From: Escherichia coli O157:H7
GTDB lineage: Bacteria; Pseudomonadota; Gammaproteobacteria; Enterobacterales; Enterobacteriaceae
Strand: one strand, 5' to 3'
Length of the DNA stretch: 64,000 nucleotides
Assembly: GCF_013167455.1 (NCBI RefSeq)
Contig: NZ_CP038328.1
Made by a program: the position numbers. Within the stretch, counting starts at the first letter, position 1; each line of letters starts with the position of its first letter. Below, one piece after another: positions 24,101-30,100 of the stretch.

Positions 24101-27100
24101 CGGGAATGATGGTCGCCGGAATATTGCGCAAAAACAGGTAGATAATCATGACTACCAGCGCGATAGCCATCATCAATTCAAACTGAGTATCATCGACGGA
24201 TGCGCGGATATTGGTGGTACGGTCAGAAAGTACCGTCACCTTCACCGATTTCGGCAGACTCTCGGTGAGCTGTGGCAGCATCTGCCGGATGCTGTCGGCG
24301 GTGGAGATAATGTTAGCACCGGGCTGGCGCTGAACATTCATCACAATGGCCTGTTCTTTATTCGCCCATGCGCCGAGCCAGCTGTTTTCTGCACCTTGCT
24401 CTACAGTTGCGACATCGCCCAGACGAATCGGCGCGCCGTTCTGGTAGGCGATGATTAGCTGGCGATACTCTTCGGCGGATTGCATCTGGTCGTTAGCGGA
24501 AAGCGTAACCGCACGGGAAGGGCCGTCAAGGCTACCTTTAGCCGAGTTAACGTTAGCGCCGGTAATGGCGGTGCGCACGGTTTCGCTGGTCAGGCCGAGG
24601 GCGGCAATCGCCTGAGCGTTAAGTTTGACGCGAACAGCCGGACGCTGGCCGCCGGAAAGCGTCACCAGGCCGACGCCGGAAATCTGCGAGATTTTCTGCG
24701 CGACGCGGGTTTCCACCATATCTTCCACTTGCGTCATCGGCATGGCTGTTGAGGTGACGGCGAGCGTCATGATCGGCGGATCTGCCGGGTTCACTTTGCT
24801 GTAAACCGGCGGGTTAGGCAGATCGCTCGGCAACAAGTTGGTCGCAGCGTTAATCGCGGCCTGCACTTCCTGCTCGGCGACATCCAGCGGTAATGTTAGC
24901 TGGAACTGTAAAGTGATAACTGACGCACCGCCGGAACTTTGCGACGACATCTGTTTCAGGCCAGACATCTGCCCGAACTGGCGTTCGAGCGGCGCGGTAA
25001 CGGCAGAGGTCATGACATCCGGGCTCGCACCTGGGTAGAGCGTGACCACCTGAATGGTCGGATAGTCCACTTCCGGCAGCGCCGAAACGGGCAGGGCGCG
25101 ATAACCGATAATCCCGGCGAGTAAGATCGCCACCATCAGCAGCGTGGTGGCCACAGGACGCATAATAAACAGGCGCGACGGGCCGCCTGTGCTGCTCGGG
25201 GGTAACACTTGCATCAGGAGCGAGCTCCTTTTTTCGCGTATTCGCGGCTGGTGGCTTTCTCTTCCGGAGTGGTGGCGCTCTGGGCTTCCACCACTTCCAC
25301 TTTCGCCCCTTCGGTCAGGCGATCAATGCCGTCTGTCACCACGCGATCGCCCGCAGAAATACCTGCGCGGATCACCACTTTCTGACTGTCCTGAATGCCC
25401 GGCGTCACCAGATGTTTGCTGACCTTGTTTTCGCTATTCAGCACCCAGACAAAATGGCCTTCATTGCCCATTTGCAGGGCGGCTGTTGGGATCACTACGG
25501 CGTTTTGTTCGGTGTCGACTAACATGCGCGCGTTAACAAACTGATTGGGAAACAGCGCATCATCCTGATTATTAAAGCGTGCTTTCACTTTAATCGTACC
25601 GGTAGTGGCATCGATTTGGTTATCGAGACTTAACAGCGTGCCTTCACTTAATTTCTTCGAGTTGGTGCGATCCCAGGCTTCTACCACCAGCGGTTTTCCG
25701 GCTTTTTGCGCCTGCACGACGGTAGCGATATCGCTTTCCGGCAGGGTAAAGAGCAAATCGATAGGATGCGTCTGGGTGATCACCACGATCCCGGTGGTAT
25801 CACCACTGGAGATTTGGTTACCAACATCAACCTGCTTGAGACCAACGCGACCATCGACTGGTGCGGTAATACGGCTCCAGTCGAGTTGCAGCTGCGCGCT
25901 GGCGACGCTTGCTTCATCAGCCTTAATGGTGCCTTCGGTTTCACTGACCAGCGCCTGTTGGGCATCCAGCTCCTGGCGGGAGACGAGATTGGTTTTTGCC
26001 AGTTGCTGATAACGCGCCAGATCACGGCGGGCGTTGGTAAGCGTGGCTTTATCTTTTGCCAGTTGGCCCTGGGCTTGTGCTAATGCAACTTTGAACTGGC
26101 TGGGGTCAATTTCTGCCAGTAAATCGCCAGCTTTGACCTGCTGGCCTTCCTGGAAATGTAACGCCATCAGTTGACCGTCCACGCGGCTACGCACCGTAAC
26201 AGTATTAGCAGCGGTAATGGTGCCAAGCCCGGTGAGGTAACGCGGAACTGCCTGTTCTACGGCGGTCGCCGCCTGAACCGGGGCTAATGGGCCGGAACGC
26301 ATACCACGGCGACCACCCGCTGGCGATTGCTGCGCTTGTTTCGTCGCCCCTGGGGCTGCACTCTGGGAGTCATTGCGGCCTTGCCAGAACCAGAATGCGG
26401 CGATGGCGGCGATAACTACCACGATTACGATTACCCAACGGGATTTATAACTGCCTTTCATCGTTAAGAGTTTCTCTTCCTGAAACGTTTCGCGGAATGA
26501 TACTAGTGTAGCCAGCCAATAAGGGAGAAAAATGGAGGAATTATGAAACACTATCGGGAATCGTCTGAATGGCGGGCACATTTGCGAGCACGCATCCAGT
26601 AATAACACAGGAAACTATTTTATCTACGCGTTAGCGATAGACTGCTTGCATGGCGAAAGGAGGTAAGCCGACGATTTCAGCGGGACGCTGAAACGGGAAA
26701 GCCCCCTCCCGAGGAAGGGGCCATAAATAAGGAAAGGGTCATGATGAAGATACTCATCATCGTGGTGCTCTTAGTGATTAGCTACCCAGCATACTAAGAC
26801 TACCAGGGCGGGGGAAACCCCGCTCTACCCTCACTCCTGAAAGTATGCCTTCACGTTCAGAATGTCAATCCGCAGGCTTTGCAGTCTGCGATCCTGCCAG
26901 CAAATATTCTTTGCGAGACGTTACGCAATAATCACAGAGGAAACTATTTTATCCGCAAGTCAGCGATAGACTGAATTCAGGGCGAAAGGAGGTAAGCCGA
27001 CGATTTCAGCGGGACGCTGAAACGGGAAAGCCCCTCCCGAGGAAGGGGCCTTAAATAAGGAAAGGGTCATGATGAAGTGGATCATCATCGTGGTGCTCTT

Positions 27101-30100
27101 AGTCATAAGCTTCCCGGCTTACTAAGACTACCAGGGCGGGGGAAACCCCGCTCTACCCTCACTCCTGAAAGTATGCCTTCACGATAAGATTGTCAATCTG
27201 CAGGCTTTGCAGTCTGCGATCCTGCCAGCAAATATTCTTTGCGAGACGTTACGCAATAATCACACTGGAAACTATTTTATCCGCAAGTCAGCGATAGACT
27301 GCATGCATGGCGAAAGGAGGTAAGCCGACGATTTCAGCGGGATGCTGAAACGGGAAAGCCCCTCCCGAGGAAGGGGCCTTAAATAAGAAAAGGGTTATGA
27401 TGAAGCACGTCATCATACTGGTGATACTCTTAGTGATTAGCTTCCAGGCTTACTAAGAACACCAGGGGGAGGGGGAAACCTTTCCCTAACCCTCACTCCT
27501 GAAATTATGTCACTCCGCCCTTAGTGTCAATCGACGGCTCTCCGTTCTTGCGAGGCGAATAGCAAAATTTTCTGCGCCGCCGGGCCTAATTCTGAAAGTT
27601 TCTTCGTTTGCTCTTATTTCATTATTGCAATCGGTATGATACCGGACCTCAATAATTCTCTAAGAAAGGATTTCTTATGAGCGAACAAATCACGTTTGCC
27701 ACCAGCGATTTTGCCAGTAACCCGGAACCACGTTGCCCCTGCATTTTGCTGCTGGATGTTTCTGGTTCGATGAACGGTAGACCCATTAATGAACTTAACG
27801 CCGGATTGGTTACCTTTCGCGATGAGCTGCTTGCCGACCCGCTGGCCTTAAAAAGAGTGGAACTTGGTATTGTGACGTTCGGCCCGGTGCATGTGGAACA
27901 ACCCTTTACCAGCGCCGCTAATTTTTTCCCGCCCATCCTGTTTGCCCAGGGGGATACACCAATGGGTGCCGCCATTACCAAAGCCCTGGATATGGTAGAG
28001 GAGCGGAAACGTGAGTATCGTGCAAATGGTATTTCGTATTATCGCCCGTGGATTTTCCTGATCACCGATGGTGCACCAACCGATGAGTGGCAGGCTGCCG
28101 CCAACAAAGTGTTTCAGGGGGAAGAAGATAAGAAGTTTGCCTTCTTTTCCATCGGTGTTCAGGGGGCGGATATTAAGACTCTGGCACAAATCAGCGTTCG
28201 TCAGCCTTTGCCACTGCAGGGATTACAATTCCGTGAACTGTTTAGCTGGTTATCCAGTTCGCTGCGTTCGGTTTCCCGCTCCACGCCGGGAACGGAAGTT
28301 GTGCTGGAAGCGCCAAAAGGCTGGACGTCAGTGTGAGCTGGCGTCTGGTTTATGCATCCGCTGTTGGAACGTCGCACATTAGCGCTGATTTACCTTGTCA
28401 GGATGCCTGCCAGATGCAGGTTGCCTGGCTAAATGACCAGCAGCCATTACTGGTGATGTTCCTTGCTGATGGCGCAGGCAGTGTCTCGCAGGGTGGCGAA
28501 GGCGCGATGCTTGCCATCAATGAAGCGATGGCTTATGTGTCGCAAAAAGTGCAGCACGGTGAATTTGGACTCAATGATATTCTCGCCACGGATATTGTGC
28601 TGACCGTTCGTCAGCGACTTTTTGCCGAGGCGGAAGCTAAAGAATTAGCAGTTCGCGATTTTGCCTGCACGTTTCTGGGATTGATTTCATCGGCTAACGG
28701 CACCTTGATTATGCAGATTGGCGATGGCGGCGTGGTGGTGGATTTTGGTCACGGTCTGCAATTACCGCTTACGCCGATGGTGGGTGAATATGCCAATATG
28801 ACGCATTTCATTACCGATGAAGATGTCGTTTCCAGACTGGAAACTTTCACCAGCACTGAGCGTGCGCATAAAGTTGCAGCATTTACGGATGGTATTCAGC
28901 GACTGGCGTTAAATATGCTGGATAATTCTCCGCATGTGCCTTTCTTTACCCCGTTTTTCAATGGACTGGCGGCAGCAACGCAGGAACAACTCGATTTATT
29001 ACCTGAATTGTTAAAGCAGTTTTTGTCGAGCCCAGCGGTAAACGAGCGTACCGATGATGATAAAACGTTGACACTGGCGCTGTGGTTACCATGAAACCCA
29101 CTTTATATACTGCTACTGGTGAGTGCGTTACGCCAGGCCGTGAACTGGGCAAAGGTGGCGAAGGCGCGGTTTATGATATCAATGAGTTTGTCGATAGCGT
29201 CGCCAAGATTTATCACACGCCGCCACCCGCCTTAAAACAGGACAAACTTGCCTTTATGGCTGCGACAGCTGACGCGCAGTTGTTGAATTATGTCGCCTGG
29301 CCGCAGGCAACGCTTCACGGTGGACGAGGCGGAAAAGTTATCGGTTTTATGATGCCAAAAGTTTCTGGTAAAGAACCGATTCATATGATCTATAGCCCGG
29401 CACATCGTCGCCAGAGTTATCCTCATTGTGCGTGGGATTTTCTACTCTATGTTGCGCGCAATATTGCTTCATCTTTTGCTACGGTTCACGAGCACGGGCA
29501 CGTCGTGGGGGACGTAAACCAGAACAGCTTTATGGTAGGTCGCGACAGCAAAGTGGTGTTGATCGATAGTGACTCCTTTCAGATTAACGCCAATGGCACA
29601 CTGCATTTATGCGAAGTCGGCGTGTCGCATTTTACGCCGCCAGAGCTACAAACCTTGCCATCATTTGTCGGTTTTGAACGTACCGCGAATCACGATAATT
29701 TTGGCCTTGCGTTGCTGATTTTTCACGTCTTGTTTGGTGGGCGGCATCCTTATTCTGGTGTGCCGCTTATCTCTGATGCGGGTAATGCGCTGGAGACGGA
29801 TATTGCCCATTTCCGTTATGCCTACGCGTCAGACAACCAGCGACGTGGTTTAAAACCGCCGCCACGATCGATTCCGCTGTCGATGTTACCGGGCGATGTT
29901 GAAGCCATGTTTCAGCAGGCATTCACGGAAAGTGGCGTGGCAACCGCGCGTCCGACGGCAAAAGCGTGGGTAGCGGCACTGGATTTACTACGCCAACAGT
30001 TAAAGAAATGTACCGTTTCGGCAATGCATGTTTACCCCGGTCATTTGACTGACTGCCCGTGGTGTGCGCTGGATAATCAAGGCGTTATCTATTTTATTGA

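Follow-up and report, generated by a model that had tools for sequence, protein, structure and literature searches.

The yegL–mdtA interval of E. coli O157:H7 is best explained as holding three intact type I toxin–antitoxin modules of the ibs/sib family, the third of which arose by unequal recombination and all of which work by the mechanism described in the literature, an explanation in which we have high confidence. The array is a real feature that the first-pass annotation read correctly, and it is already known: the Ibs gene count of Fozo et al. 2010 (PMC2887945) included surplus copies in O157. Here, we document how its units are built, which family they belong to, that they are intact and how they are distributed among E. 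coli, using as our window a 64,000-nt stretch of contig NZ_CP038328.1. Since the mdtA ATG ends at 26461 on the − strand, the array lies upstream of mdtA, where three 328-bp repeat units had been claimed. The main landmarks are as follows.

26600..27509, mdtA–yegL intergenic region: tandem array of three ~328-bp Ibs/Sib units (Tandem Repeats Finder and direct-repeat families)
25214..26461, − strand: mdtA, at the head of mdtABCD-baeSR and pointing away from the array (ORF and RefSeq annotation)
27677..28336, + strand: yegL, vWA-domain protein (ORF and RefSeq annotation); K-12 has the same flank

Tandem Repeats Finder reported a single array at 26600–27509 (period 328, 2.8 copies, 90% matches, score 1449), and the direct-repeat families returned by the repeat finder space the unit starts 328–334 nt apart. 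The sib genes are oriented toward mdtA and the ibs genes away from it. The units had been described as near-identical, which is true of units 1 and 2 (92% identical) but not of unit 3, which is only 73–75% identical to them over the whole unit. By region, unit 3 matches the other two at 90–100% in the ibs leader but at only 70–77% in the Sib/ibs core. Many O157 chromosomes are 100% identical to the window.

The + strand of the array carries the toxin genes.

26677..26685, + strand: unit 1, putative start region for ibs transcription, TCAGCGGGA (homology to ibsC/ibsD mRNA 5′ ends)
26729–26738, + strand: Shine–Dalgarno of unit 1, AAGGAAAGGG (sequence position)
26741..26797, + strand: ibs ORF of unit 1, IbsB-type, 18 aa, MMKILIIVVLLVISYPAY (translation; RefSeq WP_012767742.1)
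27006–27014 and 27334–27342, + strand: putative ibs start regions at the other repeats of TCAGCGGGA (homology to ibsC/ibsD mRNA 5′ ends)
27057–27066, + strand: Shine–Dalgarno of unit 2 (sequence position)
27069..27125, + strand: ibs ORF of unit 2, IbsB-type, 18 aa, MMKWIIIVVLLVISFPAY (translation; RefSeq WP_012767741.1)
27385–27394, + strand: Shine–Dalgarno of unit 3, AAGAAAAGGG, with one G>A change relative to K-12
27397..27456, + strand: ibsA ORF of unit 3, 19 aa, MMKHVIILVILLVISFQAY (translation; identical to K-12 IbsA, WP_010723109.1; RefSeq gene name ibsA)

Translation returned the same hydrophobic 18–19-codon ORFs that had been read from the sequence, each with its ribosome-binding site: AAG(G/A)AAAGGG precedes all three and ends 2 nt ahead of the ATG. 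Every ORF lies wholly within the span of a Sib transcript on the opposite strand. RefSeq annotates all three as Ibs family toxins; the unit 1 ORF appears at the same coordinates in O157 PA20, as "type I toxin-antitoxin system Ibs family toxin". Relative to K-12 IbsB, whose annotation goes no further than "putative toxic peptide", the unit 1 peptide carries L4I and F15Y and the unit 2 peptide L4W and L5I (2 of 18 residues each); our literature search found no report on the toxicity of these IL-Y and WI-F variants. The basic residue 3 (K3), Leu11 and the C-terminal aromatic residues are kept in all three peptides, and the first two of these features are needed for the activity of Salmonella IbsA (bioRxiv 10.1101/2025.05.26.656083). 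The putative ibs start regions rest on the ibsC and ibsD mRNA 5′ ends, which were determined by primer extension and also used in T7 primers (Han et al. 2010, PMC2943612) and which align to ATG−60 and ATG−65; a search of the literature for mapping of an ibsA/B-type promoter returned none.

The − strand carries the antitoxin genes, with RNA ends placed by alignment to annotated K-12 genes.

26696..26832, − strand: Sib1, SibB-type, 137 nt (ends inferred by alignment to annotated K-12 sibB)
26868..26863 and 26845..26840, − strand: predicted Sib1 promoter, −35 TTGACA and −10 TACTTT with a 17-nt spacer, putative +1 at 26832 (position relative to the K-12 5′ end)
26722..26703, − strand: Sib1 terminator stem (sequence position)
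27025..27160, − strand: Sib2, SibB-type, 136 nt (predicted ends)
27196..27191 and 27173..27168, − strand: predicted Sib2 promoter, TTGACA and TACTTT; terminator stem at 27050..27031 (sequence position)
27352..27494, − strand: Sib3, which is SibA, 143 nt (predicted ends)
27530..27525 and 27507..27502, − strand: predicted Sib3 promoter, TTGACA and TAATTT; terminator stem at 27378..27359 (sequence position)
26868..26726, − strand: Rfam RF00113 SIB_RNA match of unit 1, 140.1 bits
27196..27054, − strand: Rfam RF00113 SIB_RNA match of unit 2, 140.1 bits
27530..27382, − strand: Rfam RF00113 SIB_RNA match of unit 3, 144.9 bits

The SIB_RNA covariance model (gathering score 56) is covered fully, at positions 1–147 of 147, in all three units, with E about 1e-30. 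The three Sib RNAs have a similar predicted fold, and a consensus fold common to them and K-12 SibA–E includes seven pairs with compensatory changes; together with the model matches, this bears out the conserved hairpins of the first reading. Each unit shows a −35 TTGACA, a 17-nt spacer, a −10 that reads TACTTT or TAATTT, and a terminator stem rich in GC, all at the positions of those of annotated K-12 sibA and sibB, and the Sib1 hexamers are identical to those of sibB. A generic promoter and terminator consensus scan of 26450–27700 called no Sib promoter or terminator. However, this is weak counter-evidence, because the −10 hexamers match consensus at only three of six positions and the U-tract is broken (UUUCCCGUUU) in the experimentally established K-12 genes as well. 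The Sib RNAs are unannotated in the O157 records that we examined, and the coordinates given here by homology fill that gap. Our literature search found nothing useful on Sib or ibs expression in O157 or EHEC, so a Sib transcript of its own and an ibs mRNA for each of the three units are only predicted.

The orientation of the sib genes toward mdtA, together with the weak, interrupted U-tract of the Sib terminators, could suggest that the repeat is mainly a cis element for mdtABCD-baeSR, acting for example through Sib read-through toward mdtA, and that the small ORFs are incidental. We find this scarcely credible. Homologous K-12 units with the same ORF/antisense anatomy occur at unrelated loci (fau-serA and yqiK-hldE), and arrays of one to five units coexist with a conserved mdtA. 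Moreover, mdtA seems to have its own promoter region, with a BaeR-box-like sequence on the downstream side of the last Sib terminator, at 26532..26515; this assignment uses what we take to be the BaeR consensus.

Comparison with K-12 supports the reading of the units as ibs/sib modules and indicates of which type the additional one is. K-12 does hold two units at the yegL–mdtA interval, as the first-pass annotation stated. Alignment to the K-12 sibA/ibsA and sibB/ibsB units, which the first-pass annotation had proposed as a check, gave 94–96% identity: over 328 bp, identity to the K-12 ibsB unit is 96% for unit 1 and 94% for unit 2, and that of unit 3, which adjoins yegL, to the K-12 sibA/ibsA unit is 94%. 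By sequence, then, unit 3 is ibsA/sibA and units 1 and 2 are both of ibsB/sibB type, so that the "third copy" is an additional sibB-type module. Homology to ibs/sib is thus supported by the SIB_RNA model, the DNA identity to the K-12 units, their shared interval and the RefSeq Ibs annotation. In contrast to K-12 sibA/ibsA, unit 3 has a SibB-type terminator and leader as well as the G>A change in the ibs Shine–Dalgarno, which points to conversion from the neighboring unit.

Arrays of one to five units exist among E. coli. In a sample of 60 evenly spaced records out of 5422, about 24 had three units, 25 had two, eight had four or five and two had one, where the four- and five-unit arrays are records with 90% coverage that were assigned by fetching the loci. 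Among complete E. coli genomes, three units and two units are found at about equal frequency. The unit 1 variant occurs in about 2400 E. coli records and the unit 2 variant in about 2000 (at least 99% identity over 107 nt), in both cases of diverse origin. The suggestion that the third copy and the peptide variants are strain-specific thus holds in the sense that they vary among strains, but not in the sense that they are peculiar to this strain, given how common the three-unit state is and how widespread the variants are. The O157-lineage strain 319 matches the window minus exactly 329 bp, having lost unit 1, with the crossover within a 54-nt identical stretch. We propose that the third module came from unequal recombination between 328-bp units, and that the same process is still adding and removing units.

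Tandem duplicates are often transient, unit 1 is absent from strain 319 without obvious consequence, and two units suffice in about 42% of the sampled genomes and one in about 3%. One of the IbsB-type units might accordingly be a duplicate in decay, with its expression or toxicity already lost, although we consider this very unlikely. Both units have a full ORF, Shine–Dalgarno, Sib −35/−10 and terminator, and they reach equal Rfam scores; their ORFs differ by four synonymous changes and conservative I/L/W and Y/F changes; and each variant is kept in its roughly 2000–2400 records. Indeed, the ORF, Shine–Dalgarno, Sib −35/−10 and terminator stem are intact in all three units, so that the degenerate third copy that the first-pass annotation had allowed for is not found.

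Our account of how the O157 units are transcribed, act as toxins and are silenced is inferred from work on K-12 SibC/IbsC and Salmonella IbsA. The + strand of each module would give an ibs mRNA of ~155–160 nt encoding a hydrophobic inner-membrane peptide of 18 or 19 residues, and the − strand a constitutive Sib RNA of ~136–143 nt, a perfect complement of the whole ORF and ribosome-binding site. First contact between Sib and mRNA would be made by single-stranded elements, namely the hairpin loop of TRD1, within the ORF, and TRD2/J1-7, which covers the translation initiation region, with help from the P6 loop. Pairing would then spread, block ribosome binding and deliver the duplex to RNase III, as reported for Sib action (PMC4147584), so that the toxin would normally not be made. 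Upon a Sib shortfall, the peptide would enter the membrane, collapse the membrane potential and ATP, and stop growth. Ibs peptides depolarize cells within minutes (PMC8309996), and overproduction of K-12 IbsC and other Ibs peptides is toxic and relieved by the cognate Sib (PMC4147584, PMC2943612, PMC8309996); the same is known for Salmonella IbsA (bioRxiv 10.1101/2025.05.26.656083).

An additional sibB-type module raises the question of whether each Sib acts only on its own ibs. In K-12, target specificity is set by TRD1 (+46..+68) and TRD2 (+99..+115), with cognate-only repression and mRNA degradation (Han et al. 2010, PMC2943612). Sib1 and Sib2 differ by 10 substitutions, every one of them in an element that this study found to govern target choice: five in TRD1, four in the P6 loop and one in J1/7. 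It is quite possible, if not the reading that we favor, that the modules are uninsulated, such that each SibB-type RNA, and perhaps SibA too, also silences the ibs mRNAs of the other units and the extra unit adds mainly redundant antitoxin and toxin dosage and not a new specificity. The TRD2/J1-7 elements of Sib1 and Sib2 differ by only that one nucleotide, and the two RNAs share 26 nt without a break, running from the 3′ half of P6 on through J1/7; either TRD alone was enough, and contiguous helices of 22–25 bp restored non-cognate repression (Han et al. 2010, PMC2943612). One TRD2 is common to all IbsB-type units in most sampled arrays, some neighbors (LLY and ILY) differ by one P6-loop base, and non-cognate Sibs were reported to repress K-12 ibsA (Han et al. 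2010, PMC2943612). However, the five TRD1 differences leave at most four contiguous matches, the P6 loop differs at four of five positions and TRD2 required additional P6-loop contact, and four of five K-12 pairs were strictly cognate despite high overall RNA similarity (Han et al. 2010, PMC2943612).

Across 28 IbsB-type units from 12 strains, the columns that vary between Sib1 and Sib2 are the only common polymorphisms within the Sib body. Residue 15 (Y, F or W) goes with the TRD1 allele and residues 4–5 (LL, IL or WI) with the P6-loop allele, and across E. coli these two specificity elements occur in no fewer than six combinations. One could imagine that the IbsB-type units at yegL–mdtA behave as a recombining cassette array whose shuffling is selected and whose composition is strain-specific, but we regard this as doubtful. 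If true, strains would differ in which Sib silences which ibs, array composition would set a strain-specific threshold or pattern of toxin release, and with it of persistence or stress arrest, and the object of interest would be the array polymorphism instead of the single O157 locus. Separately, we rejected the clustering of changes in TRD1, P6 and J1/7 as proof of selection for discrimination: neutral drift fits equally well, because nowhere else are the RNAs unpaired at a site where the peptide change is also synonymous or conservative.

Very little is at stake in the locus itself: publications already cover the family, how it works and the O157 Ibs surplus, and RefSeq includes the three ORFs. 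Nonetheless, K-12 is a poor proxy for it: about one in two of the E. coli genomes sampled has three or more units. If the two SibB-type RNAs protect against each other's toxins, deleting one unit in a wild strain would give no phenotype, which would concern type I toxin–antitoxin knockouts in pathogenic E. coli.

Among known systems, K-12 sibB/ibsB (b4437/b4668) shares with units 1 and 2 its locus, orientation, 18-aa peptide, Sib promoter hexamers, fold and terminator, but K-12 has one such unit and O157 two. Residues 4–5 are LL in K-12 and IL or WI in units 1 and 2, residue 15 is F in K-12 and Y in unit 1, and the Sib P6 loop and TRD1 are changed correspondingly. K-12 sibA/ibsA (b4436/b4667) has its counterpart in unit 3, with an identical 19-aa IbsA next to yegL. 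K-12 SibC/IbsC, the mechanistic model (Han et al. 2010, PMC2943612), has the same P1, 5′ hairpin, TRD1 hairpin, P6 hairpin, J1/7 and terminator; its antisense RNA overlaps in full in the same way, and its ibs mRNA 5′ end is homologous. However, it is a single unit at another locus with unrelated sequence upstream of the ibs start, so its mapping does not cover A/B-type ibs promoters. More distantly, ldr/rdl and the O157 zorO-orzO/zorP-orzP pairs also combine small hydrophobic toxins with RNA antitoxins, repeated in one intergenic region and strain-variable in copy number (Fozo et al. 2010, PMC2887945). The antisense RNA of Ldr/Rdl lies over the 5′ UTR and that of Zor/Orz comes from a divergent gene, whereas only in Ibs/Sib does it run across the entire ORF (PMC8594479; PMC3919570).

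The mdtA-yegL interval holds a single tandem array at 26600-27509 (Tandem Repeats Finder: period 328, 2.8 copies, 90% matches, score 1449), whose copies lie 328-334 nt apart, confirming the three tandem 328-bp units reported in the first-pass annotation. On the minus strand, all three units align to Rfam SIB_RNA (RF00113) over the whole length of the model (144.9 bits for unit 3, 140.1 for units 1 and 2; gathering score 56; E ~1e-30). These matches, the RefSeq Ibs annotation and 94-96% identity to the K-12 units in an alignment that we ran establish the proposed ibs/sib homology. 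The three short ibs ORFs transcribed in that annotation agree exactly with the sequence, and the ribosome-binding site described before each is AAG(G/A)AAAGGG, ending 2 nt before the ATG. Units are numbered from the mdtA side.

Features of the mdtA-yegL interval; Sib ends are inferred from K-12 annotation, the annotated K-12 ends having been transferred to the window
ATG ends at 26461, minus strand: mdtA, one flank of the array
26741-26797, plus strand: ibs ORF of unit 1, MMKILIIVVLLVISYPAY, RefSeq "type I toxin-antitoxin system Ibs family toxin"
27069-27125, plus strand: ibs ORF of unit 2, MMKWIIIVVLLVISFPAY, RefSeq "type I toxin-antitoxin system Ibs family toxin"
27397-27456, plus strand: ibsA ORF of unit 3, MMKHVIILVILLVISFQAY, RefSeq ibsA, WP_010723109.1
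26832..26696, minus strand: Sib1, antitoxin RNA of unit 1, 137 nt
27160..27025, minus strand: Sib2, of unit 2, 136 nt
27494..27352, minus strand: Sib3/SibA, of unit 3, 143 nt
26657-26664, 26986-26993 and 27314-27321, plus strand: perfect Shine-Dalgarno-like AAGGAGGT, one per unit
starts at 27677, plus strand: yegL, the other flank

The intergenic region is 100% identical in many O157:H7 chromosomes, and O157:H7 RefSeq records annotate all three ibs ORFs at exactly these coordinates, the two non-ibsA ORFs under WP_012767742.1 and WP_012767741.1; the O157 records examined carry no Sib RNA annotation. On the mdtA side of the array lie a sigma-70-like match (TTCAGA-18-CATAAT, 26569..26540) and TTTTTCTCCCTTATTGGC (26515-26532, minus strand), a putative BaeR-box-like sequence (consensus of Nishino et al. 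2005); this site occupies the gap separating mdtA from the first Sib terminator, 54-71 nt 5' of the mdtA ATG.

A putative promoter stands before each Sib, with -35 TTGACA, a 17-nt spacer and -10 TACTTT (TAATTT for SibA), and a GC-rich stem forms the predicted terminator. The three are predicted to fold alike, with a closing P1 stem, a 5' hairpin, a TRD1 hairpin, an AUGAUGA/UCAUCAU P6 hairpin and the terminator, and they share with K-12 SibA-E a consensus structure with compensatory changes at seven pairs. For the toxin mRNAs, primer extension mapped the ibsC and ibsD 5' ends in Han et al. 2010 (PMC2943612), where mRNAs of 159 and 163 nt, ending opposite Sib +1, were used. In our alignment the mapped starts lie at ATG-60 and ATG-65, and TCAGCGGGA at 26677, 27006 and 27334 corresponds to them, marking the probable ibs starts here. 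A/B-type and C/D/E-type units are homologous only from exactly the ibs start onward, so the mapping published for ibsC and ibsD does not carry over to A/B-type ibs promoters. In the modeled mRNAs the start codon would sit inside a 7-bp stem, and part of the Shine-Dalgarno sequence would pair with the mRNA 3' end. The upstream AAGGAGGT precedes the putative transcription start, and no start codon follows it at a spacing that could be used.

The mechanism has been shown in other Ibs/Sib pairs and would extend to the O157 units by analogy. A Sib represses only its cognate ibs mRNA, ibsA being the exception (PMC2943612), by blocking ribosome binding, followed by RNase III-dependent decay (PMC4147584). 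In SibC, two target recognition domains act independently. TRD1 (+46..+68) is a hairpin loop that faces the ORF; TRD2 (+99..+115), in J1/7, faces the translation initiation region and requires P1 and a P6-loop contact. Swapping both domains switches specificity (PMC2943612). IbsC depolarizes the membrane within minutes (PMC8309996). Salmonella IbsA is reported to bind Fo subunits a and b and to lower ATP, with residue 3 and Leu11 essential (2025 preprint, bioRxiv 10.1101/2025.05.26.656083); K3 and L11 are kept in all three O157 peptides.

The description of the units as near-identical holds for units 1 and 2 (92%) but not for unit 3, which is 73-75% identical to them overall. Its ibs leader (~90 nt) is 90-100% identical to theirs, whereas the Sib/ibs overlap reaches only 70-77%; conversion or constraint may account for such leader identity despite divergent cores. 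Ten substitutions, plus an additional G in the terminator stem, separate Sib1 from Sib2. The substitutions are confined to TRD1 (five), the P6 loop (four) and J1/7 (one), and their ORF counterparts are codons 4-5 (IL vs WI), Y15F and four synonymous third-position changes (codons 12, 13, 16 and 17). Across 28 IbsB-type units from 12 strains, common polymorphism within the Sib body is limited to these columns. Such clustering fits discrimination between paralogues, and it fits neutral drift equally well because only at the variable columns are the RNAs unpaired and the peptide tolerant of change. Moreover, TRD2 is nearly identical in Sib1 and Sib2, with an uninterrupted 26-nt match, and most arrays have one TRD2 common to every IbsB-type unit. 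Cross-silencing between units 1 and 2, which would then not be strictly insulated, is therefore a live possibility.

The third copy and the peptide variants had been called strain-specific. Copy number does vary by strain: in 60 evenly spaced records from 5422 matching E. coli records, corrected by fetching loci, we counted three units in 24, two in 25, one in 2, four or five in 8 (H81, H84 and H85 being scored so from pattern only) and an off-locus match in 1. Three units are thus far from unique, and the exact unit-1 and unit-2 variants occur in 2373 and 2026 E. coli records, respectively (≥99% identity over 107 nt), so that "strain-specific" is accurate only in the sense that copy number at this locus varies and three units are one of its common states. 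The O157-lineage strain 319 (NZ_CP018241.1) equals 26463-27677 minus a clean 329 bp, a loss that takes in the Sib/ibs core of unit 1. The crossover point falls inside a 54-nt identity common to units 1 and 2 (26652-26705 = 26981-27033), indicating that unequal homologous recombination is still altering copy number. IbsB-type alleles are mosaic: the TRD1 allele goes with residue 15 (Y, F or W) and the P6-loop allele with residues 4-5 (LL, IL or WI), in at least six combinations whose order along the array varies by strain. This reassortment across E. coli may, with lower probability, be selected rather than neutral. At the extremes, BY68 has one unit and HB42 five, two neighbors being identical; GN04275 lacks an IbsA-type unit and carries two of the IbsB type, IS150 is inserted next to the array in AH21, and an IbsA variant beginning MRK occurs in G8 and AH21. 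Among E. coli genomes, 10 of 21952 array-query matches fell on plasmid-classed records. Earlier work places Ibs/Sib on chromosomes and reports no homologues on plasmids (PMC2887945), and these matches may be misassigned replicons or real transfers.

Elsewhere in the window, a type II pair (RelE/ParE-family toxin and helix-turn-helix antitoxin genes; 40357-40975, minus strand) lies between asmA and yegH and is accessory, with matches covering at least 80% of the region in 792 of 5426 complete E. coli genomes. The annotation of an identical O157 record makes dgcE (yegE, diguanylate cyclase; 33479-36797, minus strand) a frameshifted pseudogene. Four further Rfam matches are unsurprising in this region of the E. 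coli chromosome.

Other Rfam matches above gathering score
4888-4958, plus strand: naRNA4
13279-13364, minus strand: CyaR sRNA
43075-43113, plus strand: JUMPstart element upstream of wza (colanic acid operon)
57593-57642, plus strand: algC RNA motif just 5' of cpsG (starts 57647)

Extra ibs genes in O157 are already on record: Fozo et al. 2010 (PMC2887945) listed six Ibs genes in EDL933 and seven in Sakai and discussed lineage-specific ibs duplications. In K-12 MG1655 the mdtA-yegL interval holds two units, as the first-pass annotation stated, with sibA/ibsA adjoining yegL and sibB/ibsB adjoining mdtA. Its record annotates sibA and sibB, unlike that of O157 strain PA20 (NZ_CP017669.1), which lists the three ibs coding sequences and no ncRNA features for the Sib RNAs or CyaR. 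Unit 3 corresponds to the K-12 sibA/ibsA unit (identical peptide, 94% DNA identity). The other two belong to the sibB/ibsB type, unit 1 with 96% and unit 2 with 94% identity to its K-12 representative, so the O157 "third copy" is an extra SibB/IbsB-type module. The feature is real and was interpreted correctly, and it does not depart from the known Ibs/Sib family.
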